Shown here in pieces: positions 1 to 12,526 of a DNA stretch of 12,526 nt. Source of the stretch: a virus (lineage: Duplodnaviria; Heunggongvirae; Uroviricota; Caudoviricetes); IMG/VR virus record IMGVR_UViG_2671180012_000008; one strand, written 5' to 3'. The notes under the pieces are model-generated. The model was not told the origin of the DNA and made no database searches. It saw only the letters and a list, made by a program, of their open reading frames with translations. Every line of letters starts with the position of its first letter. Within the stretch, counting starts at the first letter, position 1. The position numbers and the translations under genes were made by a program.

Positions 1-38
1 TTAGTGTATGATGGTGTTTTTGAGGTGCTCCAGTGGCT
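1..38 (+). mobile_element. IS1 left-end fragment, just inside the left inverted repeat and running into the insA start
   Basis: The 38 nt TTAGTGTATGATGGTGTTTTTGAGGTGCTCCAGTGGCT match the IS1 left terminal region as I recall it, ending at the GTGGCT that opens insA. Cut by the N-run at 39-48. Confidence 0.7.
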
Positions 39-48
39 NNNNNNNNNN

Positions 49-2097
49 TCCGGTTGCAAAATGGAATTTCGCCGCAGCGGCCTGAATGGCTGTACCGCCT
101 GATGCGGATGCGCCGCCACCAACAGCCCCGCCAATGGCGCTGCCGATACTCCCGACAATCCCCACCATTGCCTGCTTAAGCAGAATTTCTGTCATCATGG
201 ACAGCACGGAACGGGTGAAGCTGCGCCAGTTCTGCTCACTGCCGGTCAGCATCGCTGCCATATTCTGTGCAATACCATCAAAGGTCTGCGTGGCTGCACT
301 TTTTACCTGCGACATACTGTCCGTGGCGCTCTCTTCCCACTCACTCCAGCCGGACTTCAGGCCTGCCATCCAGCTCCCGCGAAGCTGGTCTTCAGCCGCC
401 CAGGTCTTTTTCTGCTCTGACATGACGTTATTCAGCGCCAGCGGATTATCGCCATACTGTTCCTTCAGGCGCTGTTCCGTGGCTTCCCGTTCTGCCTGCC
501 GGTCAGTCAGCCCCCGGCTTTTCGCATCAATGGCGGCCCGTTTTGCCCGTTGCTGCTGTGCGAATTTATCCGCCTGCTGCGCCAGCGCGTTCAGGCGCTC
601 CTGATACGTAACCTTGTCGCCAAGTGCAGCCAGCTGGCGTTTGTACTCCAGCGTCTCATCTTTATGCGCCAGCAGGGATTTCTCCTGTGCAGACAGCTGG
701 CGACGTTGCGCCGCCTCCTCCAGTACCGCGAACTGACTCTCCGCCTTCCACAAATCCCGGCGCTGCTGGCTGATTTTCTCATTTGCTCCGGCATGCTTCT
801 CCAGCGTCCGGAGTTCTGCCTGAAGCGTCAGCAGGGCAGCATGAGCACTGTCTTCCTGACGATCGCCCGCAGACACCTTCACGCCGGACTGTTTCGGCTT
901 TTTCAGCGTCGCTTCATAATCCTTTTTCGCCGCCGCCATCAGCGTGTTGTAATCCGCCTGCAGGATTTTCCCGTCTTTCAGTGCCTTGTTCAGTTCTTCC
1001 TGACGGGCGGTATATTTCTCCAGCGGCGTCTGCAGCCGTTCGTAAGCCTTCTGCGCCTCTTCGGTATATTTCAGCTGTGACGCTTCAGTATCGCTCTGCT
1101 GCTGCGCATTTTTGTCCTGTTGAGTCTGCTGCTCAGCCTTCTTTCGGGCGGCTTCAAGCGCAAGACGGGCCTTTTCACGATCATCCCAGTAACGCGCCCG
1201 CGCTTCATCGTTAACAAAATAATCATCCTTGCGCAGATTCCAGATGTCGTCTGCTTTCTTAAACGCAGCCTCTGCCTTAATCAGCATCTCCTGCGCGGTA
1301 TCAGGACGACCAATATCCAGCACCGCATCCCACATGGATTTGAATGCCCGCGCAGTCCTGTCTGCCCAGGTCTCCAGCGTGCCCATGTTCTCTTTCAGGC
1401 GGCGGGTCTGGTCATCAAACCCTTTCGTTGCGGCCTCGTTCGCCGCCTGCAATGCCCCGGCTTCATCGCCGGAACGCTGCAACTGAGCAACATACGCAAT
1501 CTGCTCCGCCGTCACGTTATGGAACTGGCGTGCCATCGCCGTCAGCCCCGACGTCGGGTCTGTGGTCAGCTTCCCGAAGGCTTCTGCGACCTTGTCCACC
1601 TCCACGCCGGATGCAGAGGAGAAACGCGCCACACTCTGGCTGATGGACGCAATCTGAGCCTCACCGCTTACCCCCGCCTTAACCAGTGCGCTGAGTGACT
1701 CGCTGGTCTGGTTAAACGTCAGCCCTGCCGCCTGCCCGGCTCTGGACAGGACCAGCATACGATCTGCCGTCAGACCCGACTGATTACCGGAAAGGACCAG
1801 CGTTTTGTTGAAATCGGACAGGGTTGAGTTGCCCTGATACCAGGCATACGCCAGCGCACCGGTCGCCACCGCCAGCGAGGTGGCCCCGACCATCGGCAGG
1901 GTGATCGCACCGGCAAGCCCCCTGAACATGGGGATCATCCCGCCGAAGGAGTCCTTCACCTGACCACCCTGTTGCAGCAGGATCAGCCACGGACTCTGCC
2001 CGCCTGCAAGCTGCGTGGCCACGTCGGTGAACTGCGCAGGCAGCATACGCATGGCGGCTTTATACTGCCCGACGGAAATCCCCGCTTTCTGTGCAGC
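49..2097 (-). CDS. H: Lambda-like tail tape measure protein gpH, internal fragment truncated at both ends by N-runs
   Basis: The minus-strand translation runs AAQKAGISVGQYKAAMRMLPAQFTDVATQLAGGQSPWLILLQQGG ... GGTAIQAAAAKFHFATG with a long coiled-coil-like Q/A/K/E-rich middle, near-identical to lambda gpH as I recall it. The Met at 2052 reported by the ORF track is internal; the frame stays open up to the gap at 2098. Confidence 0.92.
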
Positions 2098-2107
2098 NNN
2101 NNNNNNN

Positions 2108-2239
2108 TCAGTCCGTCACCGACGGTGTGAAGGTGAAAGTGAGCCGTGTTCCTGACGGCGTTGCCGGATACAGCATATGGGGGCTGAAGCTGCCGACGCT
2201 GCGCCAGCGCCTGTTCCGCTGTGTGAGTATCCGTGAGAA
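2108..2239 (+). CDS. J: Lambda-like tail tip / host specificity protein J, central fragment (variant 1)
   Basis: Translation QSVTDGVKVKVSRVPDGVAGYSIWGLKLPTLRQRLFRCVSIRE matches the central part of lambda J. It overlaps in content with the next block, so it is a second copy rather than a continuation. Confidence 0.85.
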
Positions 2240-2249
2240 NNNNNNNNNN

Positions 2250-2666
2250 GAAAGTGAGCCGGGTTCCTGACGGCGTTGCCGAGTACAGCGTGTGGGGGCT
2301 GAAGCTGCCGACGCTGCGCCAGCGCCTGTTCCGCTGTGTGAGTATCCGTGAGAACGATGACGGCACGTATGCCATCACTGCCGTGCAGCATGTACCGGAG
2401 AAAGAAGCCATCGTGGATAACGGGGCGCACTTTGACGGCGACCAGAGCGGAACGGTAAACGGTGTCACGCCGCCAGCGGTGCAGCACCTGACCGCAGAAG
2501 TCACCGCAGACAGCGGGGAATACCAGGTGCTGGCGCGCTGGGACACGCCGAAGGTGGTGAAGGGCGTGAGTTTCCTGCTTCGCCTGACCGTGGCAGCGGA
2601 TGACGGCAGTGAGCGGCTGGTCAGCACGGCCCGGACGACGGAAACCACATACCGCTTCACGCAGCT
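2250..2666 (+). CDS. J: Lambda-like J, central fragment (variant 2)
   Basis: Translation KVSRVPDGVAEYSVWGLKLPTLRQRLFRCVSIRENDDGTYAITAVQHVPEKEAIVDNGAHFDGDQSGTVNGVTPPAVQHLTAEVTADSGEYQVLARWDTPKVVKGVSFLLRLTVAADDGSERLVSTARTTETTYRFTQ, near-identical to lambda J. Confidence 0.9.
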
Positions 2667-2676
2667 NNNNNNNNNN

Positions 2677-3109
<433 letters not shown>

Positions 3110-3119
3110 NNNNNNNNNN

Positions 3120-3725
3120 AAGCCGCCCCTGGTTTCCTTTTACAGCGAATAAATAATCACCGCCCTGTTTTTGTATCTTCTCTGCAATATCTTTCTGGCA
3201 TCCCATCGCATCAGTTGTGATGATTTTTCCTTTAATATCCAGCATGTTAAGAAGTTCAGGAATGGCTGTAATCTCATTAGATTTCTCATCCGTCTTGATC
3301 TGTCCGATGACCAGACTGTGCATTGTTGAGAACGCACTAATGACATGAATCGCTCCCCTGCGGCGACTCTTGTCATAAGAGTGCCGGAGCGTTTTTCCAT
3401 CAATTGCAATGACGTCTTTATCATCTGAAGAATGGCAGTCACGCATCCAGTTAATAAAGCACTCGTGAAATTTTGCAGGACTGATACAGGATACAACTCT
3501 GGCAATGGTATCGTGAACAGGAATACCATTTTCAAAATCACCATATTGCTTCAAAAAATCGAGATGTGTTTCCCCAAAATCCTCTATATCTTCCCAACCT
3601 TCTGCACCAGAAATAACGGCACAAATAGTCAACAGTAGAATATCCGATAATTTATGTTCCACATTCCAGGCTTGTCTGTAATCGGGGATAACAGAAATAT
3701 GTTCCATCAATTTTTTAAGTTCCAT
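3120..3725 (-). CDS. ISAs1-family (H-repeat-associated) transposase, N-terminal 202 codons, truncated by the gap at 3110-3119
   Basis: Translation [78 protein letters not shown] ... [15 protein letters not shown] matches the E. coli H-repeat/ISAs1 transposase family. ATG at 3725 is preceded by a strong SD (TAAGGAG, 6 nt spacer). Confidence 0.85.
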
Positions 3726-3770
3726 TTTGTTCTCCTTAATTATGTAAGGAGTATTTGATCCAAGGCAAGA

Positions 3771-3853
3771 TTACGAAAGCCCGCTCCCCGCAAGGACTGA
3801 CGCCAGATAGTTTCTGTCCATGGCTGCTTTTCGCATCTTACGTCTTAACCCTG
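3771..3853 (-). CDS. Probable C-terminal end of an ISAs1-family transposase (last 26 codons plus stop)
   Basis: Minus-strand frame reads GLRRKMRKAAMDRNYLASVLAGSGLS then TAA at 3771-3773, which matches the C-terminus I recall for H-repeat transposases. It lies only 45 nt upstream of the transposase start at 3725. The 5-prime side is cut by the gap at 3854-3863. Confidence 0.5.
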
Positions 3854-3863
3854 NNNNNNNNNN

Positions 3864-4152
3864 CAGTGACCCGGCACATACGGCAACCGCGCCCGGCGGA
3901 TTGAGTGCGAAAGCGCCTGCAATGACCCCGCTGATGCTGGACACCTCCACCCGTAAGCTGGTTGCGTGGGATGGCACCACCGACGGTGCTGCCGTTGGCA
4001 TTCTTGCGGTTGCTGCTGACCAGACCAGCACCACACTGACGTTCTACAAGTCCGGCACGTTCCGTTATGAGGATGTGCTCTGGCCGGAGGCTGCCAGCGA
4101 CGAGACGAAAAAACGGACCGCGTTTGCCGGAACGGCAATCAGCATCGTTTAA
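3864..4152 (+). CDS. D: Lambda-like head decoration protein gpD, C-terminal 95 codons (copy 1)
   Basis: Translation [95 protein letters not shown] then TAA at 4150-4152, matching lambda gpD. Confidence 0.92.
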
Positions 4153-4170
4153 CTTTACCCTTCATCACTA

Positions 4171-4194
4171 AAGGCCGCCTGTGCGGCTTTTTTT
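4171..4194 (+). terminator. Hairpin followed by a T-run in the D-E intergenic spacer (intrinsic-terminator-like)
   Basis: GCCGC (4174-4178), loop CTGT, GCGGC (4183-4187), then seven T at 4188-4194. Sits between the D stop and the E start. Confidence 0.5.
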
Positions 4195-4207
4195 ACGGGA
4201 TTTTTTT

Positions 4208-4216
4208 ATGTCGATG
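4208..4216 (+). CDS. E: First three codons of the major capsid protein gene E, cut by the gap
   Basis: ATGTCGATG lies 55 nt after the D stop, the same spacing and start as lambda E. Only 9 nt are present. Confidence 0.55.
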
Positions 4217-4226
4217 NNNNNNNNNN

Positions 4227-4766
4227 CGTAGTCAACATTCAGATAACGTGTTTCTTCACGTAATTCATTGCCGTCAACCGTTGGTCCCTGCAACTCTTCA
4301 CCGTAATGAGTAAACGATCCCACAGCTTCTGGTATCGCCTCCATTACTTCCTGTGCAATAACGCCAGCATAAGGCATCCCGTTTTCCCTGAGCGTGTAGG
4401 TGTATCCGTTCATTTTACGGATTGCTTTCGTCGCGTCGCTGATAACGAGAATATCGTCTTTAAGGTCGCGGTCTGATGACTGATTCAGCATTGTGCAATT
4501 AATAGCGCCATTTACATCAAACAACTGGCCTGCTGACGTTTTTGCGCATAAAACAGATACGCAGCAGACGTTCCAACCTCAAAAACGTTTTGTCGAGTAC
4601 TGGAACCCCACACCCTGACAGAAAACGGTAGTTCTGCATTACCTGAGTTCTGTAAAACAAAACGATTACCAGTCCCTGATTGCTTTGTAAGGGTTAAATC
4701 AACGGTTGAGTTAACCTCATCCTTGTTGATAGTGAGCGCCTGCGCTTTAGCCCCGTTAACAGCACC
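4227..4766 (-). CDS. Phage tail fibre C-terminal region with an intramolecular-chaperone (endosialidase-chaperone / peptidase S74-like) domain; reading frame interrupted at 4539-4543
   Basis: The upstream frame (4766 down to stop at 4512) reads GAVNGAKAQALTINKDEVNSTVDLTLTKQSGTGNRFVLQNSGNAELPFSVRVWGSSTRQNVFEVGTSAAYLFYAQK. The second frame (4524 down to 4227) reads FDVNGAINCTMLNQSSDRDLKDDILVISDATKAIRKMNGYTYTLRENGMPYAGVIAQEVMEAIPEAVGSFTHYGEELQGPTVDGNELREETRYLNVDY, with the SDRxLK..GxIAQE..PE pattern typical of auto-cleaving tail-fibre chaperone domains. Confidence 0.7.
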
Positions 4767-4776
4767 NNNNNNNNNN

Positions 4777-5127
4777 CTGCGCCGCTGACAACGGCACCTG
4801 ATACAGCCCTGTGGCCTCCAGATTATCCAGATAGAGATTCTGACCGTTACGCCACCAGTCATCCTCGCGATGAAAATCCGGCATCTCAATCCCCGCCAGA
4901 TGGTAAGCATCCCGGAACAGCGTGTAACAGTCCGTCACCCCGTGCTCAAAGCGCCGCCCGGAAAGATGTGGCACACAGCGGAACTTGTGAATCGCCCCCC
5001 GGCAAACCAGCCACCACGGCAAATCACTCTGCACCTGCAGCCGCCGGTCGGCCTCACTCAGCCATGGCAGACCACCGGGGTGGCTGTGGACCAGCGCCAC
5101 AATCTCACCCTGCATTTCTGCCTGCAG
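4777..5127 (-). CDS. K: Lambda-like tail assembly protein gpK (JAB/MPN plus NlpC/P60-type), internal fragment
   Basis: Translation LQAEMQGEIVALVHSHPGGLPWLSEADRRLQVQSDLPWWLVCRGAIHKFRCVPHLSGRRFEHGVTDCYTLFRDAYHLAGIEMPDFHREDDWWRNGQNLYLDNLEATGLYQVPLSAAQ matches lambda K. The HSHPGG motif is the JAB metal-binding signature. Confidence 0.88.
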
Positions 5128-5288
5128 NNNNNNNNNNAGGGATGTTACCTCGCGCCCGACCCGGTAGCCGTAAGGGATAAGCCGAGGGCACCGCGCAGCG
5201 GCGATTTTGTTCGCCAGAGCCCGGGGGTGCAGGGGGCGGCGGCGATTGGCCGCCCCCTGCGCGCTCCTTGCGCCAGTGNNNNNNNNNN

Positions 5289-5423
5289 AAAACAAAAGGC
5301 TCAGTCGAAAGACTGGGCCTTTTGTTTTATCTGTTGTTTGTCGGTGAACGCTCTCCTGAGTAGGACAAATCCGCCGGGAGCGGATTTGAACGTTGCGAAG
5401 CAACGGCCCGGAGGGTGGCGGGC
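5289..5423 (+). other. Distal (post-5S) region of an rRNA operon, including the T1-type terminator
   Basis: Sequence AAAACAAAAGGCTCAGTCGAAAGACTGGGCCTTTTGTTTTATCTGTTGTTTGTCGGTGAACGCTCTCCTGAGTAGGACAAATCCGCCGGGAGCGGATTTGAACGTTGCGAAGCAACGGCCCGGAGGGTGGCGGGC is the E. coli rrn T1 terminator region (familiar from rrnB T1 in expression vectors), with two substitutions in the stem. Confidence 0.85.
5294..5329 (+). terminator. rrn T1 intrinsic terminator hairpin
   Basis: Stem AAAAGGCTCAGTC (5294-5306), loop GAAA, stem GACTGGGCCTTTT (5311-5323), followed by a GTTTTAT U-tract. Confidence 0.8.
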
Positions 5424-5433
5424 NNNNNNNNNN

Positions 5434-6320
5434 TCCAGACTCATAGCGGGATAAAAGCTGACCGTTCGGATCAACCGCCAGTGCATCCCTGTAATGCTCC
5501 CGAACCCTCTGAGCTTTTTCGCTGACACTCATCGCTGTGAATTCTGCTTCACTCATCGTGTCGAAAGGACTGGCGTTATGTGGCTTCAAAGCCTCAAGAA
5601 TTGCCTTCAGGGTGGATTCCTCTCCGTAATGGGCAAGCGCATCATTCCAGTCACCAAAAACCGGTGGCAGCACAATGTCACACTGACACGCTTTTGCAGC
5701 AGCTTCAGCCCTGTTCTGGCCTGAACTATTCAGATCTCGGTCCGCTGCAATAATTAGCTGATACCCCGGATACTTGTTATGGGCAACGCTGGCCAGAGAA
5801 AGAAAGTTGACCGCCGAAAATGCCACCATGACGGCTTCTCCTGTCAGATGATGAATGGTAAGCGCCGTGGCGTAGCCTTCCGCAATCCACATCCTTCTTA
5901 CTGAACTCCCGCTCCCTTCTATCAGATGATAGGCCTCCTTAACCTGACCCCCTTTAAGAAAACACTTGCTACCATTGCCACTGATAAGCTGAATATTCAC
6001 CAGCACCCCGTCAGTGTTATAGAGCGGGACGATCAAATCACCGGGGCGGAACATCACCCCACCGGTTTTATGATCTGAAGTCAGCTCATGGCAAATATGC
6101 TCCGGGAAACCTTTATGTGTAAGATAAGTGTTTCCGGCAGATTCACGCGAGGCTTGCAGCAGTCGCGCGGCAAGTGCTGCCGCTGCATCTTTCCCGCTAT
6201 CGGCATCGGCGGTTAACGTCTTGACTTCGGAATTAGCTATAGAGAGACCATGTGTCAGTCCATGTATCCTGTCAGCTGCTTCACTGATATCCACATTCAG
6301 TGCCCTGGTGACAAGCGCTA
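5434..6320 (-). CDS. Toprim-domain primase-like protein (P4-type / plasmid-type primase family), internal fragment cut at both ends
   Basis: Minus-strand translation contains WIAEGYATALTIHHLTGEAVMVAFSAVNFLSLASVAHNKYPGYQLIIAADRDLNSSGQNRAEAAAKACQCDIVLPPVFGDWNDAL, i.e. the conserved Glu (EGxxTA) and DxD motifs of a toprim fold. The GTG at 6294 used by the track is probably not the real start because the frame is open up to the gap. Confidence 0.6.
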
Positions 6321-6330
6321 NNNNNNNNNN

Positions 6331-6474
6331 TAGTGACCCGGCTCATACCGCAACCGCGCCCGGCGGATTGAGTGCGAAAGCGCCTGCAATGACCCCGCTG
6401 ATGCTGGACACATCCACCCGTAAGCTGGTTGCGTGGGATGGCACCACCGACGGTGCTGCCGTTGGCATTCTTGC
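6331..6474 (+). CDS. D: Lambda-like gpD fragment (copy 2)
   Basis: Translation [47 protein letters not shown] is identical in protein to copy 1 at 3864-4007; the nucleotide differences are all at third codon positions. Confidence 0.9.
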
Positions 6475-6484
6475 NNNNNNNNNN

Positions 6485-6590
6485 CTTATCGTTGGCGTCC
6501 TTCCACTCTTTCGAAAACTCATCCAGTTTGCTGGCGTTATCCTCCGTCAGGTCGACTTTTTCCAGCAGCTCCTTGCCGAGATGGGATTCG
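6485..6590 (-). CDS. J: Lambda-like J C-terminal-half fragment (copy 2)
   Basis: Translation [35 protein letters not shown], a close variant of the J segment encoded at about 2720-2830. Confidence 0.8.
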
Positions 6591-6600
6591 NNNNNNNNNN

Positions 6601-6711
6601 TCATTCATCGTATTCTGCGCACCATTCTGTTGCCCCTTCCGTGCTGACAAGCGCCAGCGGCAGGCCGCGATGGTCGCAGTGGTACAGGTGGATTTTTCGC
6701 GCCGGCGTGTA
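6601..6711 (-). CDS. Rhs core (conserved C-proximal core region), short fragment
   Basis: Translation [36 protein letters not shown] matches the conserved Rhs core of E. coli Rhs proteins. Confidence 0.8.
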
Positions 6712-6721
6712 NNNNNNNNNN

Positions 6722-6830
6722 AAATCAGCCACAGCGCCTCCCGTTATTGCATTCTGGCCAGGCCGCGCTCTGTCATTTCGGCTGCCACACCGGCAGAGAC
6801 ACGAAACGCCGTTCCCGGCAGCACAAATGC
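6722..6830 (-). CDS. FI: Lambda-like FI C-terminus (6744-6830) followed by the start of FII (GTG at 6730-6732)
   Basis: Translation AFVLPGTAFRVSAGVAAEMTERGLARMQ then TAA, 11 nt spacer containing GGGAGG, then GTG GCT GAT TT (M-A-D-F) as in FII. The 11 nt spacing equals the lambda FI-FII gap. Confidence 0.75.
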
Positions 6831-6840
6831 NNNNNNNNNN

Positions 6841-7119
6841 GGGCCAGGTGGTAAGCACTTCCTGCTCAATCTGTTTAACGGCTTCATTCATGGACGGCAT
6901 CTGCGTCTTCTGCGGATGGTTATGCCACAGGGACATCGCCACCAGAAACGCGCCGGTTCTGATGGCGTCTTCCACAGTAAACTTCCGGTTGCTGTCTGAC
7001 TCCGCCTGTTCTGCCTGCCGTTTCATCAGGGCGAGATGCTCAATACGCTGCAGGGCTGACAGTTCAGAAAGCGTGACGGTCACACCGTTATGTTCAAATG
7101 ATTCGGTTTTCAGGAACAT
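6841..7119 (-). CDS. G: Lambda-like tail assembly chaperone gpG, N-terminal 93 codons (copy A)
   Basis: Translation MFLKTESFEHNGVTVTLSELSALQRIEHLALMKRQAEQAESDSNRKFTVEDAIRTGAFLVAMSLWHNHPQKTQMPSMNEAVKQIEQEVLTTWP. ATG at 7119 with SD GGAGAG, 15 nt after the V stop as in lambda. The G-T frameshift site is not within this fragment. Confidence 0.9.
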
Positions 7120-7134
7120 CGCTGACTCTCCGGA

Positions 7135-7521
7135 TTAACTGGCGGTGACGTTGATTTCTGCAACCGCAGCAAGTTCACCATTACCGGATACGACCGGAAT
7201 GTTGACCTTGCCTGCAGCAACACCTTTCACGGTGATGGTCATACCACTGACCGACACGGTGGCTTTTGTTTTATCCGCAGACACCGCACGGAAGCTCTTG
7301 TCGGTTGCGCCCTCCGGCTGGAATGCCACGGTCAGTGTGGTGCTCTGCCCTTTCACTACGGAAGCACTGGCGGGTGTCACCGTCATGCCGGTTGTCGCCG
7401 TCACCGTGCTGCGATCTTCTGCCATCGACGGACGTCCCACATTGGTGACCTTCACCGTGCGGGTGATCACTTCCTTCGCCGTCACCGCCTTACCGATACT
7501 GCTGACCCAGCCACGGAACAC
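7135..7521 (-). CDS. V: Lambda-like major tail protein gpV, C-terminal part including the Ig-like (Big_2) domain (copy A)
   Basis: Translation [127 protein letters not shown] then stop at 7135-7137. Confidence 0.9.
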
Positions 7522-7531
7522 NNNNNNNNNN

Positions 7532-7856
7532 TACGGTGAAGGTCACCAATGTGGGCCGTCCGTCAATGGCAGAAGATCGCAGTACGGTGACGGCGGCAAC
7601 CGGTATGACCGTGACGCCTGCCAGCTCCTCGGTGGTGAAAGGGCAGAGCACCACGCTGACCGTGGCATTCCAGCCGGAGGGCGCAACTGACAAGAGCTTC
7701 CGTGCGGTGTCAGCGGATAAAACAAAAGCCACCGTGTCGGTCAGTGGTATAACCATCACCGTGAAAGGCGTTGCTGCAGGTAAGGTCAACATTCCGGTTG
7801 TATCCGGTAATGGTGAACTTGCTGCGGTTGCAGAAATCACTGTCACCGACAGTTAA
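7532..7856 (+). CDS. V: Lambda-like gpV C-terminal part (copy B, opposite orientation to copy A)
   Basis: Translation [105 protein letters not shown] then TAA at 7854-7856. Confidence 0.9.
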
Positions 7857-7871
7857 TCCGGAGAGTCAGCG

Positions 7872-7969
7872 ATGTTCCTGAAAACCGAATCATTTGAACA
7901 TAACGGCGTGACCGTCACGCTTTCTGAACTGTCAGCCCTGCAGCGTATTGAGCATCTCGCCCTGATGAA
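7872..7969 (+). CDS. G: Lambda-like gpG N-terminal 32 codons (copy B)
   Basis: ATG at 7872, 15 nt after the V stop; translation MFLKTESFEHNGVTVTLSELSALQRIEHLALM. Confidence 0.85.
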
Positions 7970-7980
7970 NNNNNNNNNNC

Positions 7981-8139
7981 GAGCTGCTGCACCATATTCC
8001 TGAACAACTGAGCAAACGAGAGAGGTATACCGACAAATGGCAGCGACGCACACACTCCCTCTGGCGTCACCGGGCATGGCGCGCATCTGCCTTTACGGGG
8101 ATTTACAACGATTTGGCCGCCGCATCGACCTTCGAGTGA
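7981..8139 (+). CDS. K: Lambda-like gpK C-terminal 52 codons
   Basis: Translation ELLHHIPEQLSKRERYTDKWQRRTHSLWRHRAWRASAFTGIYNDLAAASTFE then TGA at 8137-8139. It overlaps the I start by 103 nt in another frame, exactly as in lambda. Confidence 0.85.
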   Translation, partial: ELLHHIPEQLSKRERYTDKWQRRTHSLWRHRAWRASAFTGIYNDLAAASTFE

Positions 8140-8458
8140 AAACGGGGTCCGAAGCCATTCGGGCGCTGGCCACACAGCTCCCGGCGTTTCGTCAGAAACT
8201 GAGCGACGGCTGGTATCAGGTACGGATTGCCGGGCAGGATGTCAGCACGTCCGGATTAACGGCGCAGTTACATGAGACTCTGCCTGATGGCGCTGTGATT
8301 CATATTGTTCCCAGAGTCGCCGGGGCCAAGTCAGGTGGCGTATTCCAGATTGTCCTGGGGGCTGCCGCCATTGCCGGATCATTCTTTACCGCCGGGGCCA
8401 CCCTTGCAGCATGGGGGGCAGCCATTGGGGCCGGTGGTATGACCGGCATCCTGTTTTC
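8037..8458 (+). CDS. I: Lambda-like tail assembly protein gpI, N-terminal 140 codons
   Basis: Translation MAATHTLPLASPGMARICLYGDLQRFGRRIDLRVKTGSEAIRALATQLPAFRQKLSDGWYQVRIAGQDVSTSGLTAQLHETLPDGAVIHIVPRVAGAKSGGVFQIVLGAAAIAGSFFTAGATLAAWGAAIGAGGMTGILF, near-identical to lambda I. Confidence 0.9.
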
Positions 8459-8468
8459 NNNNNNNNNN

Positions 8469-8576
8469 TCCGCCCGGTGTGTCCATATCGAGCAGAATGC
8501 CGTCCACCATCGGGTCGCTGGCAGCCTGTTGCAGACGGGCGATAATGCCGTTGTAACCGGTCATCCCCGAGTACGG
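8469..8576 (-). CDS. C: Lambda-like capsid assembly protease gpC (S49 / ClpP-like peptidase), internal fragment
   Basis: Translation PYSGMTGYNGIIARLQQAASDPMVDGILLDMDTPGG, matching lambda C around the S49 peptidase fold. Confidence 0.8.
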
Positions 8577-8586
8577 NNNNNNNNNN

Positions 8587-8697
8587 TGCCAGCGTCGCGA
8601 GTGCCTCCTGGGCAGTCAGGCTGTCGCCGGACACCGCATCCGTCAGGCGGCTGATCCCAAGCTGGCCTGCAAGCGCACAAAAGAAAACCCGCGCATA
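8587..8697 (-). CDS. C: Lambda-like gpC, more N-terminal fragment
   Basis: Translation YARVFFCALAGQLGISRLTDAVSGDSLTAQEALATLA. It is in the same orientation and order as the previous block, consistent with one gene having a missing internal piece under the 10 N. Confidence 0.75.
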
Positions 8698-8886
8698 NNN
8701 NNNNNNNGATAACTTTCCCGTTATTACCGTTGATTTCCGTGCCAGTGGAATCCTTGCCGTCAACGGTGGTTTTGCCGCTGTTATTCGCNNNNNNNNNNAG
8801 CCAAAGCGCGCAAACTGGAACAGCAACAGGCTAATGCGGAACCAGAAGAACAGGTTGATCCGCGCAAAGCCGCCGTNNNNNNNNNN

Positions 8887-8964
8887 CTTGAGCGCCAGTA
8901 GCGCAGCTTCCTCGGCAACGGCGGCAGGAAATTCCGCGAAGGCCGCAAAAACGTCTGAGACGAA
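8887..8964 (+). CDS. Possible side tail fibre (Stf-like) N-terminal low-complexity repeat region, short fragment
   Basis: Translation LSASSAASSATAAGNSAKAAKTSET resembles the Ala/Ser-rich repeat (..SSAGRAASSATAAENSARAAKTSETN..) of the lambda side tail fibre. Only 26 codons are present. Confidence 0.45.
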
Positions 8965-8974
8965 NNNNNNNNNN

Positions 8975-9137
8975 CCAAAAACAGAGAAAGGAAACGACAG
9001 AGGCCCAAAAGCTCGTTTTCAGCACCTGTCGTTTCCTTTCTTTTCAGGGGGTATTTTAAATAAAAACATTAAGTTACGACGAAGAAGAACGGAAATGCCT
9101 TAAACCGGAAAATTTTCATAAATAGCGAAAACCCGCG
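8975..9137 (-). promoter_or_regulatory. cosB / Nu1 leader region of a lambda-like cos site (terminase small-subunit binding region); Nu1 itself lies beyond the gap
   Basis: The reverse complement reads CTCGCGGGTTTTCGCTATTTATGAAAATTTTCCGGTTTAAGGCATTTCCGTTCTTCTTCGTCGTAACTTAATGTTTTTATTTAAAATACC..., near-identical to the first 180 nt or so of the lambda genome. Confidence 0.8.
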
Positions 9138-9149
9138 AGGTCGCCGCCC
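9138..9149 (-). other. cosN 12-nt cohesive-end sequence
   Basis: Plus-strand AGGTCGCCGCCC is the reverse complement of the lambda cohesive end GGGCGGCGACCT, followed by CGTAACCTGTCGG, the reverse complement of the lambda right end. Confidence 0.85.
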
Positions 9150-9348
9150 CGTAACCTGTCGGATCGCCGGAAAGGACCCGCAAAATGATAATAATTATCA
9201 TCTGCATGTCACAACGTGCATCTACGCAATCAAACCACGTCAAATAATCAATTATGACGCAGATATCGTATTAATTGATCTGCATCAACTTAACGTAAAA
9301 ACAACTTCAGACAATACAAATCAGCGACACTGAATACGGGACAACCTC

Positions 9349-9582
9349 ATGTCAACGAAGAACAGAACCCGCAGAACAACAACCCGCAACATCCGCTTTC
9401 CTAACCAAATGATTGAACAAATTAACATCGCTCTTGATCAAAAAGGGTCCGGGAATTTCTCAGCCTGGGTCATTGAAGCCTGCCGCCGGAGACTGTGCTC
9501 AGAAAAAAGAGTTTCTCCTGAAGCAAACAAAGAAAAGAGTGACATTACTGAATTGCTCAGAAAACAGATCAGACCAGATTGA
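9349..9582 (+). CDS. Small basic ribbon-helix-helix-like protein (77 aa), function unknown
   Basis: Complete ORF ATG 9349 to TGA 9582. N-terminus MSTKNRTRRTTTRNIRFPNQMIEQINIALDQKGSGNFSAWVIEACRRRL has the Arc/MetJ/CopG pattern of a basic tail, beta strand (NIRFP), then two helices. The SD is weak. Confidence 0.6.
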   Translation: MSTKNRTRRTTTRNIRFPNQMIEQINIALDQKGSGNFSAWVIEACRRRLCSEKRVSPEANKEKSDITELLRKQIRPD

Positions 9583-9638
9583 AGCAATTTAGATAATCGT
9601 GCAGACTACGCCCCTCATATCACATGGAAGGTACTACA

Positions 9639-10049
9639 ATGGCTCAGGTTGCCATTTTTAAACAAATATTCGATAAAGTGCGAAAAGATTTAAACTGTGA
9701 ATTGTTTTATTCTGAACTAAAACGTCACAACGTCTCACATTATATTTACTATCTAGCCACAGATAATATTCACATCGTGTTAGAAAACGATAACACTGTG
9801 TTAATAAAAGGACTTAAAAAGGTTGTAAATGTTAAATTCTCAAGAAACACGCATCTTATAGAAACGTCCTATGATAGGTTGAAATCAAGAGAAATCACAT
9901 TTCAGCAATACAGGGAAAATCTTGCTAAAGCAGGAGTTTTCCGGTGGGTTACAAATATCCACGAACAAAAAAGATATTACTATACCTTTGATAATTCATT
10001 ACTCTTTACTGAAAACATACAGAGCACATCACAAATGTTTCCACACTAA
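9639..10049 (+). CDS. DUF1398-family protein (lambdoid putative envelope protein, YbcV-like)
   Basis: ATG at 9639 with SD GGAAGG 7 nt upstream (the track start at 9624 is less likely); TAA at 10047-10049. The C-terminal [42 protein letters not shown] fits the DUF1398 signature I recall. AT-rich coding sequence. Confidence 0.75.
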
Positions 10050-10317
10050 ACCATAACGTCCGGTTTCTTCTACCCCTGCACCGGACTGGCTGACATGAAG
10101 AGCAACCCCGCGTTCAGTTGACGCGTTAATAACCCGGTGTGCATCGTTTTTGATTATTCCCGCACACTCACGCAGAAGGAATTCCCCGTCGGGCTACGGT
10201 CATGGTTAATGCGGGAATACGGCGACGATACAGCGCATGATGTGTCAGGCTTGAATACCTTTATCCGTTAAAAGGGATATCAGTTAAGTTATCCCGTGTA
10301 GGGTATAAACCATTATC

Positions 10318-10344
10318 AAAGCCACTCTGTAGGGAGTGGCTTTT
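10318..10344 (+). terminator. Hairpin with flanking A and T runs (possible bidirectional intrinsic terminator) in the gene-free gap
   Basis: AAA GCCACTC TGTAGG GAGTGGC TTTT: a 7 bp perfect stem (10321-10327 and 10334-10340) with a 6 nt loop, flanked by AAA and TTTT. Confidence 0.4.
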
Positions 10345-10552
10345 GTAATGACAATAAAAAGCCCCGCGAATACGAGGCTAAATCCTGGTATTTGTAATGA
10401 CTGGCTCTTATCTCAACGCAGCCCCTTACCGCGCGCAAGATGCTCAATATCAAGCATCAGCAATGAGATATTTAATCTGGATTCACTCCAGAAGTGATCA
10501 CCACCCTGTCTACAGAGCCAGATGTGAAGGATGATGAGTAAAATTATCGCTA

Positions 10553-10694
10553 TCATCGAAGGCATTGCGTCCTGATATATTCCTGAAGCGTTCTCAGTGC
10601 TGTCTGGTCTCTGATGATTCCGTCCCGGATACCGAGAACGTTTCGTCCAGCAACTGGAGAGAGTTCGACGGTGGCATCATTGCCCATGCCGGAG
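10553..10694 (-). CDS. Rz: Rz-like i-spanin, C-terminal 46 codons
   Basis: Translation SGMGNDATVELSPVAGRNVLGIRDGIIRDQTALRTLQEYIRTQCLR then TGA; aligns in pattern with the lambda Rz C-terminus (..SGVDNAASPRLADTAERDYFTLRERLITMQKQLEGTQKYINEQCR), including the terminal QC-R. Confidence 0.65.
10594..10694 (-). CDS. Rz1: Embedded Rz1-like o-spanin, C-terminal part, in the +1 frame of Rz
   Basis: The alternative frame reads PAWAMMPPSNSLQLLDETFSVSGTESSETRQH then TGA at 10594-10596; the PAWxMxPP stretch resembles the proline-rich lambda Rz1 (PPPAWIMQPPPDW). Confidence 0.5.
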
Positions 10695-10704
10695 NNNNNN
10701 NNNN

Positions 10705-10741
10705 TGCCGATCTGACGTATGTCATTACCTATGAAATGTGA
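10705..10741 (+). CDS. U: Lambda-like tail terminator gpU, last 11 codons
   Basis: Translation [11 protein letters not shown] then TGA at 10739-10741, matching the gpU C-terminus; 7 nt before the V start as in lambda. Confidence 0.8.
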
Positions 10742-10748
10742 GGACGAT

Positions 10749-11038
10749 ATGCCTGTACCAAATCCAGCAATACCGGTGAAAGGTGCCGGAACCACCCTGT
10801 GGGTTTATAACGGGAGCGGCGACCCTTATGCGAACCCGCTTTCAGACGTTGACTGGTCGCGTCTGGCAAAAGTTAAAGACCTGACGCCCGGCGAACTGAC
10901 CGCTGAGTCCTATGACGACAGCTATCTCGATGATGAAGATGCAGACTGGACTGCGACCGGGCAGGGGCAGAAATCTGCCGGAGATACCAGCTTCACGCTG
11001 GCGTGGATGCCCGGAGAGCAGGGGCAGCAGGCGCTGCT
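10749..11038 (+). CDS. V: Lambda-like major tail protein gpV, N-terminal 96 codons
   Basis: Translation [96 protein letters not shown]. The true start is ATG 10749 (SD GAGGA), not the track start at 10719. Confidence 0.92.
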
Positions 11039-11048
11039 NNNNNNNNNN

Positions 11049-11162
11049 CACGCCGCATCCGACATCTAACGCCCGAGCCGGTTGCCTGATGCGACGCTGA
11101 CGCGTCTTATCAGGCCTACACCGCTGTGAAGTGCTCCACCCCGTAGGTCGGATAAGGCGGTT
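11049..11162. repeat. BIME-type cluster of REP (palindromic unit) elements in alternating orientation
   Basis: A complete REP GCCTGATGCGACGCTGACGCGTCTTATCAGGCCTAC at 11084-11119 is flanked by REP-like halves in inverse orientation (ACGCCGCATCCGACAT and CCCCGTAGGTCGGATAAGGCGGTT). This is a typical E. coli chromosomal intergenic repeat. Confidence 0.75.
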
Positions 11163-11172
11163 NNNNNNNNNN

Positions 11173-11427
11173 GACCGTGACCAGTTCAGCCGTATCCTGA
11201 ATCACGGTATCCGGCTGCGCTGATACCACCTCATTTTCATGCCCGGTCAGCACATTTTCCCGGCTGAGAGGGGTGTCCTGACCGGCAGTTTCATCCGTGT
11301 CATCAAGCTCTTCTTCCAGCTCTGCCACACGAAGCGCCAGTTCTTCTTTCGTTCCCGTCAAACTGACATCGCGGTTCAGTTGCTCACCCAGCTCCTGAAG
11401 ACGGGCAATCAGTTCATCTTTCGTCAT
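11173..11427 (-). CDS. FI: Lambda-like DNA-packaging protein gpFI, N-terminal 85 codons
   Basis: Translation MTKDELIARLQELGEQLNRDVSLTGTKEELALRVAELEEELDDTDETAGQDTPLSRENVLTGHENEVVSAQPDTVIQDTAELVTV. ATG at 11427 with SD GGAGGAG, 41 nt after the E stop as in lambda. Confidence 0.85.
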
Positions 11428-11448
11428 GAACTCCTCCACAGAGAGAAA

Positions 11449-11466
11449 ATGGCCCCGAAGGGCCAT
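11449..11466 (-). terminator. GC hairpin in the E-FI intergenic spacer (terminator-like; minus-strand reading is followed by TTTTCTCTCT)
   Basis: ATGGCCC, loop CGAA/TTCG, GGGCCAT: perfect 7 bp stem. It lies between the E stop (11469-11471) and the FI SD. Confidence 0.4.
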
Positions 11467-11468
11467 GA

Positions 11469-11556
11469 TTACGCCAGTTGAACGGACACGAACTCATCAG
11501 GGTCAGCCAGCAGCATCAGCGGTGCTGACTGAATCATGGTGAACTCACGCGCCGGA
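11469..11556 (-). CDS. E: Lambda-like major capsid protein gpE, last 28 codons
   Basis: Translation PAREFTMIQSAPLMLLADPDEFVSVQLA then TAA at 11469-11471. Confidence 0.75.
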
Positions 11557-11774
11557 NNNNNNNNNNAATTCACCACAGCGATGTGGTAACTTCGGTGAGA
11601 TTGTGAAAGTTTGCACTCATCGGGGAAGGGTGAGAACCTTCGACTAAGGTTCGATTCGAGCGAAAGCGAGAGAACGTTGCCACAGGCAACGGCCCGAAGG
11701 GTGAGGAGCGAAGCGACGAATAATCCTTCCCCCACCACCATCTCAAGCATTACCTCGAAATTTGAATTACCCCT

Positions 11775-11835
<61 letters not shown>

Positions 11836-11845
11836 NNNNNNNNNN

Positions 11846-11945
11846 CCGGATAAGCTGCTGCAGCTGATGCGGGTTCTCTTCATTCAGCAGGTTGCCCCAT
11901 TCATCATATTCTGCGCACCACGCTGTTGCCCCTTCCGTGCTGATG
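11846..11945 (-). CDS. Rhs core fragment (second copy, longer into the core)
   Basis: Translation [33 protein letters not shown] matches the conserved Rhs core shortly upstream of the core/toxin-tip boundary. Confidence 0.85.
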
Positions 11946-11955
11946 NNNNNNNNNN

Positions 11956-12266
11956 GCCGAAAGTAAAACGCAGACGGTCGATGTTTGCCGACGTGATGGC
12001 GCGGGTGATCGGCGTGTCATATTTCACTTCCGTACCCAGCACCGTCTCGGAGCCGGAGGATTCAAATCCCTCCGGCGGAGTCTGCTCCTGCTCACCAGCC
12101 CGGAACACCACCGTGACACCGGTGATGTTGGTATTCCCCTCACTGTCCAGCACCGGCGTACTGTTCAGCAGCACGCTTTTTAATCCATCCACCGGACCTT
12201 CAACCGGCCCTTCACTGATGGCGTCTATCACGCTCAGCATCTGGGATGATTTCAGGTTGTCCTTCG
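11956..12266 (-). CDS. J: Lambda-like J, N-terminal-region fragment
   Basis: Translation KDNLKSSQMLSVIDAISEGPVEGPVDGLKSVLLNSTPVLDSEGNTNITGVTVVFRAGEQEQTPPEGFESSGSETVLGTEVKYDTPITRAITSANIDRLRFTFG matches the lambda J N-terminal region. Confidence 0.88.
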
Positions 12267-12276
12267 NNNNNNNNNN

Positions 12277-12396
12277 GTCGGCCTGGAATTTATCCAGCGC
12301 ATCGTGCAGCGGTTGTGGGAACTCATAGTTACCGGTGTAGGTCACGCCGAAAGTCGGCACCACGCCGATGGTGTTTTCGTCACAGGCTTCAATCAT
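12277..12396 (-). CDS. gadA/gadB: Glutamate decarboxylase (GadA/GadB) internal fragment, copy 1
   Basis: Translation [40 protein letters not shown] matches the internal segment of E. coli GadA/GadB (..[24 protein letters not shown]..). The Met is internal. Confidence 0.88.
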
Positions 12397-12406
12397 NNNN
12401 NNNNNN

Positions 12407-12526
12407 ATCGGCCTGGAATTTATCCAGCGCATCGTGCAGCGGTTGTGGGAACTCATAGTTACCAGTGTAGGTCACGCCGAAAGTCGGCACCACGCCGATG
12501 GTGTTTTCGTCACAGGCTTCAATCAT
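12407..12526 (-). CDS. gadA/gadB: Glutamate decarboxylase (GadA/GadB) internal fragment, copy 2
   Basis: Same 40 codons as copy 1 with two synonymous third-position differences (ACC/ACT and GAC/GAT), consistent with the two gad paralogues. Confidence 0.88.

Follow-up and report, generated by a model that had tools for sequence, protein, structure and literature searches.

It was found that the window (the whole stretch of DNA analysed here, 12,526 nt in length) contains the C-terminal part of a lambdoid prophage side tail fibre gene, and that the loss of one A from a run of A residues on the minus strand separates the fibre frame from the frame of a Peptidase_S74 chaperone domain. The positions of the break and of the surrounding features are listed in Table 1. 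To judge from the sequence comparisons described below, the A5 allele is probably a genuine 1-nt deletion from A6, which is private to the lineage of Escherichia coli RU1 and would inactivate the gene. The two reading frames should be annotated not as separate genes but as one pseudogene, a side tail fibre gene with an S74 chaperone domain that is disrupted by a frameshift.

The minus strand from 4560 to 4500 reads GCG TAT CTG TTT TAT GCG CAA AAA CGT CAG CAG GCC AGT TGT TTG ATG TAA. The fibre frame reads ...AAYLFYAQKRQQASCLM and is then terminated by the TAA, while the chaperone frame reads ...CAKTSAGQLFDVNGAINCTMLNQSSDRDLKDDI... on the same strand. The first-pass annotation had placed the upstream closure of the chaperone frame at a distance of about 60 nt, and a TGA was indeed found at 4581-4579, 67 nt 5′ of the TAA. 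It had also proposed that one added base would give a continuous fusion. When one A is inserted into the A run, the frames are joined as ...YAQKTSAGQLFDVNGAINCTMLNQSSDRDLK... (in a longer reading, ...AAYLFYAQKTSAGQLFDVNGAINCTMLNQSSDRDLK...), and the repaired product is the same as the intact homologues except for one Thr/Met polymorphism. Thus, all of its statements about the sequence, including the positions of the A5/T5 run and the TAA, hold on the minus strand. The native part of the fibre frame matches the homologues and T4 gp34-type fibre repeats. However, the break does not coincide with a domain boundary; it is located within the C-terminal end of the mature fibre, with 21 codons remaining before that of the catalytic Ser. 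The supposed split between the fibre body and the chaperone is therefore correct as to the separate frames but not as to the place of the break, which is inside the mature fibre.

Table 1. Features of the window and of the 540-bp piece that carries the frame break. Strand: -, minus;., not stranded.
Feature	Position	Strand	Remarks
IS1 end	1-38		
Tape measure fragment	49-2097		
ISAs1-type DDE transposase fragment (DDE_Tnp_1_assoc + DDE_Tnp_1)	3120-3853		Absent from prophage L004
Decoration/capsid junction	3864-4216		
N10 spacer, piece end	4217-4226	.	Beyond it: unrelated head decoration/capsid junction
540-bp contig piece, C-terminal part of a side tail fibre gene (Stf type) from a lambdoid prophage	4227-4766	-	Flanked by N10 runs
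Peptidase_S74 intramolecular chaperone/autocleavage domain, 83 codons	4227-4476	-	PF13884, E 7.8e-13; cut by the contig end
Last 21 codons of the mature fibre (TSAGQLFDVNGAINCTMLNQS)	4477-4539	-	Now out of frame with the fibre body
C-to-T substitution, Thr to Met	4490	-	Makes an ATG 5 codons before the catalytic Ser
Premature TAA of the shifted fibre frame	4512-4514	-	Direct reading
Fibre frame in its present form, with 76 native codons (GAVNGAK...LFYAQK) and 8 out-of-frame codons (RQQASCLM)	4515-4766	-	Translation
A5 homopolymer (T5 on the plus strand)	4539-4543	-	Site of the 1-nt deletion relative to A6 in all homologues (alignment)
TGA closing the chaperone frame upstream	4579-4581	-	With the TAA, bounds the 64-nt stretch that must hold the frame change
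N10 spacer, piece end	4767-4776	.	Beyond it: gpK-like JAB/C40 fragment, not the upstream fibre gene
gpK JAB fragment	4777-5127		
Toprim_3 primase-like fragment	5434-6320		Absent from prophage L004
Separate 78-bp piece, matching a tail fibre gene of this type in its N-terminal third	8887-8964	-	blastn

Over the 540-bp piece, nucleotide identity is 99.3% with a tail fibre CDS from a prophage of E. coli J31, 98.7% with the corresponding CDS of strain D3, and 95.6% with the side tail fibre gene of phage mEp460. These three annotated CDSs are single ORFs of 1101-1202 amino acids. The full-length homologues have a phage_tail_N domain (PF08400, E 3e-72) at the N-terminus and a Peptidase_S74 domain near the C-terminus. 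In the repaired fragment, the PF13884 match (49 bits versus a cut-off of 22) covers residues 98-149 and starts exactly at the Ser of SDRDLK, where a putative S-x4-K dyad is found at the domain start (Ser codon 4476-4474 and Lys codon 4461-4459). The same Ser-x4-Lys spacing is known for the S911/K916 dyad of the endosialidase endoNF (PMC8326128). The junction also resembles the fibre distal subunit in PDB 6f45 (SSDRRIKKDI). The piece ends at 4227, about 67 codons short of the stop codon of the homologues. As for the C-terminal trimerising helix or coiled coil of the domain, one of the homologues (L001) has just a weak coiled-coil type match at residues 1058-1099.

Is the break a chance reading? 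Each of four aligned sequences carries one extra A as compared with the window. When 33 loci with 87.6-99.3% identity were compared with the 540-bp piece, every one of them showed exactly one gap, always in the A run. Thus, the break is not a chance reading. In all the 33 homologues, the S74 domain resides in the same polypeptide as the fibre; in the window allele it does not, since its fibre frame is terminated by the TAA, short of the S74 domain by 21 codons and one frame. The intact homologues are collinear across this point, as had been predicted, and two separate ORFs at the break were found at none of the 33 loci. Together with the PF13884 match, these gaps support the earlier suggestion that a fibre and its intramolecular chaperone were split by the loss of one base in a homopolymer.

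The A5 form was not found in the broader collections searched. A 32-mer containing A5 occurs in none of the metagenome contigs, versus 29 contigs for the A6 33-mer, and in all of these 29 contigs the reading frame passes the site and continues for another 171 codons. An 83-nt A5 query against 5426 complete E. coli genomes gave no perfect match, only 83/84 matches. As a control for this genome search, a C4/C5 site at 9611-9614 was used, for which perfect matches exist and rank first. This site, which lies 10 nt upstream of the start of a DUF1398 gene, has C4 in the window versus C5 in the closest full-length reference, strain CUPF06. It was considered as a second homopolymer error and rejected; many complete genomes have a perfect C4, which is a natural polymorphism. 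A scan of the GTDB species representatives matched neither the A5 word nor the A6 word and is uninformative, since the fibre module is absent from that collection. At the protein level, none of the 12 homologue candidates of the truncated 84-aa product ends with RQQASCLM, in a search of low power (word index and clustering), and the exact 84-aa sequence is absent from the clustered protein collection searched. Three short E. coli fibre fragments (P0001-P0003) were seen to diverge right after ...AAYLFYAQK, where either QQTGKTT or TTDGQNLTEPP... follows. Modules may be joined at this position, or the three proteins may be further truncated forms.

The Thr/Met polymorphism results from position 4490, which is C in 32 of the 33 homologues and T in the remaining one, a metagenome contig (L021) with A6 and an intact ORF. 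The possibility that the Thr-to-Met change is a new start codon tied to the split was rejected because this intact gene has the same change. By this comparison, the T residue is an older natural polymorphism that predates the frameshift and is unlinked to the break.

How much of the gene is actually present in the window? The window (1-12526) contains 32 runs of exactly 10 N, which separate 33 pieces of 38-2049 bp. These pieces, among which are also gpJ pieces, correspond to scattered parts of a lambda-type prophage (L004), in either orientation, or to repeat DNA of other kinds, including IS fragments. The window behaves like a mis-scaffolded chain of repeat contigs in scrambled order, not like a real locus. 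Since repeat contigs are joined by N10 here, gene order and gene ends read across the spacers are invalid. For example, the apparent stop codon of the chaperone ORF at 4168 falls in the unrelated decoration/capsid piece, and a 132-aa ORF runs across an N10 run. On the 540-bp piece, only 84 fibre-frame codons and 83 chaperone-domain codons are present. Thus, a fibre frame does exist as the first-pass annotation had it, but its "fibre body" is far shorter than was implied, the N10 spacers having gone unnoticed. The phage_tail_N region is not contiguous with the 540-bp piece and is represented by just the 78-bp fragment at 8887-8964, which matches L001 (1186-1259), L003 (889-962), and L004 (5533-5460) at 97% identity in blastn. 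In J31, D3, mEp460, and VTB97584v, the homologous fibre gene is placed after J and lom, while the pieces of the window are scrambled. The methodological lesson is that repeat contigs joined by N10 invalidate any reading of gene order across the spacers.

Two other pieces, 6841-7521 and 7532-7969, are different alleles of one gpG/gpV stretch in opposite orientation. They match L004 at 15953-16633 and 16134-16570 with 98.4% and 93.8% identity, respectively. The presence of two gpG/gpV alleles indicates that the source genome carries at least two related lambdoid prophages, which are interleaved in the window. In a look-up, the partial decoration protein of the piece neighbouring the 540-bp piece matched many unrelated E. 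coli assemblies. The boundary of the decoration piece is a common repeat boundary and does not tie the window to RU1.

The exact truncated 84-aa product is encoded on the contigs JRRW01000269 (seen in at least 20 samples), JRRJ01000091 (in 2), and JRRL01000262 (in 10), which belong to assemblies of E. coli RU1 LB2, MA1, and MA3 (PMC9638481). Thus, at least 32 assemblies, from RU1 and the lines evolved from it, have the A5 allele on short contigs. Where they overlap with the window, these contigs are base-identical to it, including A5 and the rare T at 4490. RU1 is a single isolate from human stool, whose ancestor was sequenced with Roche 454 technology and assembled with Newbler, while Illumina HiSeq was used for the MA clones as well as for the LB and BHI populations (PMC4263409). 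Neither the tail fibre nor any method of assembling the lines de novo is mentioned in the RU1 paper or its supplements. Since at least 32 assemblies from a single strain lineage share the allele, a genuine inactivating frameshift now ranks first among the three alternatives that had been named earlier, followed by a sequencing error and then by a programmed slip.

Could the true sequence be A6, with an under-call in the 454/Newbler RU1 reference or in a common pipeline carried into all the assemblies? 454 data are prone to homopolymer miscalls, while consensus errors between A5 and A6 are rare in Illumina data. The A5 site itself is a homopolymer, the fragmentation of the window into 33 pieces joined by N10 is extreme, and the A5 allele is known from one project alone, from which all the A5 observations stem. 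The RU1 authors themselves mention errors in the 454 reference of the ancestor (PMC4263409). If the line assemblies had been derived from this reference without indel correction, the agreement of the 32 assemblies would not be independent evidence. However, the lines were sequenced on Illumina (PMC4263409), and the contig boundaries vary (343, 339, and 289 bp, versus 540 bp in the window). The 343-bp and 339-bp contigs (JRRW01000269 and JRRJ01000091) differ by 2 nt at both ends. Such a symmetric difference is typical of independent de Bruijn assemblies and is consistent with k values differing by 2, i.e., with de novo Illumina assemblies. The line assemblies thus appear to be independent of the 454 reference. 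The rest of the window also argues against miscalling. It has 48 homopolymers of five or more bases, including A6, A7, and T7, and the other 47 cause no frame break. About 5 kb of its pieces align to the reference prophage with no indel at all, almost all pieces have a frame that is open over their full length or interrupted only at natural boundaries between genes, and no other frame-breaking indel was found in the window. A random read error in the homopolymer is very unlikely, given that at least 32 RU1-line assemblies have A5 and that the lines were read on Illumina. I regard a systematic under-call, too, as unlikely, and the reads would truly carry A5.

It was also considered whether the split is functional. 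In such a case, tRNA-Lys slipping by -1 on CAA-AAA-C would yield a small amount of full-length fibre, or slippage during transcription would restore it; alternatively, translation starting from the ATG at 4491-4489 would produce the chaperone domain separately, for action in trans. The prophage would then have a fibre with a tuned dosage or a fibre in two parts. If tRNA-Lys in the P site slipped by -1, from AAA to AAA, exactly the wild-type protein would result, and the ATG is located five codons before the catalytic Ser. However, with A6 all the 33 homologues have a single frame, and a slip is thus neither conserved nor required. The zero frame, GCG CAA AAA CGU, lacks an X XXY YYZ heptamer; only the P-site tRNA-Lys could re-pair, while the A-site CGU cannot. 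The possibility of a slip stimulated by RNA folding was rejected because the 84 nt downstream of the A run, at -17.8 kcal/mol, fold no better than shuffled sequences (z = -0.31). Transcriptional slippage is not efficient on five A residues, which are too few. As for action in trans, the ATG also exists in the intact L021 gene as an older polymorphism, and the truncated fibre would lack 21 native residues that a trans-acting chaperone could not supply. A functional split is therefore highly improbable.

A genuine deletion remains the best explanation, and the following course of events may be proposed. The loss of one A from the A6 run may have occurred by replication slippage. The wild-type gene encodes one polypeptide of about 1100-1200 amino acids consisting of an N-terminal tail-attachment domain, a fibre shaft, and a C-terminal Peptidase_S74 domain. 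According to the summary in PMC8326128 of earlier work (Schwarzer 2007; Schulz 2010), the S74 domain helps the upstream fibre to fold and trimerise and then, after the trimer has formed, autocleaves via a Ser-Lys dyad. As established for this family, the S74 domain of the wild-type fibre would act in cis, driving the trimerisation and folding of the fibre before cutting itself off at its Ser-Lys dyad. Translation of the A5 allele would leave the native frame after ...LFYAQK, add RQQASCLM, and stop. The resulting fibre, ending with ...YAQKRQQASCLM, would be devoid of the whole chaperone domain and of the last 21 residues of the mature fibre. Since both the chaperone domain and these 21 residues are gone, the folding of a stable trimer is predicted to fail. 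The side tail fibre is thus predicted to be inactivated, and virions of the RU1 prophage would be without side fibres, like those of lambda PaPa. The lesion would be an ordinary gene-killing mutation in a well-known type of prophage fibre gene and has little significance beyond annotation. It may be taken as one more case in which an adsorption gene of a prophage has decayed, here in a natural isolate from the gut, and it parallels the stf lesion of lambda PaPa.

In lambda PaPa, a frameshift in stf abolishes the side fibres, whose synthesis and assembly it prevents; they are not essential, as infection continues via gpJ (Hendrix & Duda 1992, as summarised in PMC12617516). The two cases share a side tail fibre frameshift in a lambdoid phage, and the gene of the present homologues also lies downstream of J and lom. 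They differ in the site of the lesion and in the C-terminal module, and the effect of the A5 lesion on the particle is a predicted one. While lambda Stf relies on a separate assembly protein, Tfa, the fibre type in the window has a built-in S74 chaperone, which is removed by the A5 lesion. The closest relatives, the mEp460 side tail fibre (AFM76057.1), WP_172614105.1, and WP_073545343.1, have the same domain order and 95.6-99.3% nucleotide identity over the 540 bp. In contrast to the split A5 allele of the window, they have A6 and a single ORF of 1101-1202 amino acids.

The chaperone domain itself resembles the intramolecular chaperone autocleavage (ICA) domains of endoNF (phage K1F), the K5 lyases, the T5 L-shaped tail fibre, and GA-1 gp12 in its PF13884 match and, in the homologues, in its location after a fibre shaft. 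The Ser-x4-Lys dyad of the window (SDRDLK) corresponds to S911/K916 of endoNF. Unlike the known ICA domains, the domain in the window is represented by its first 83 residues only and is not fused to its substrate. The A5 site also differs from the -1 frameshift sites of the dnaX and lambda G-T type in having neither a slippery heptamer nor a stimulatory structure, and none of the 33 homologues shows two-frame conservation. Finally, it is unlike a random homopolymer error in that A5 recurs across at least 32 assemblies and is accompanied by no other frame-breaking indel in the window, the C4 at 9611-9614 being a common natural allele.
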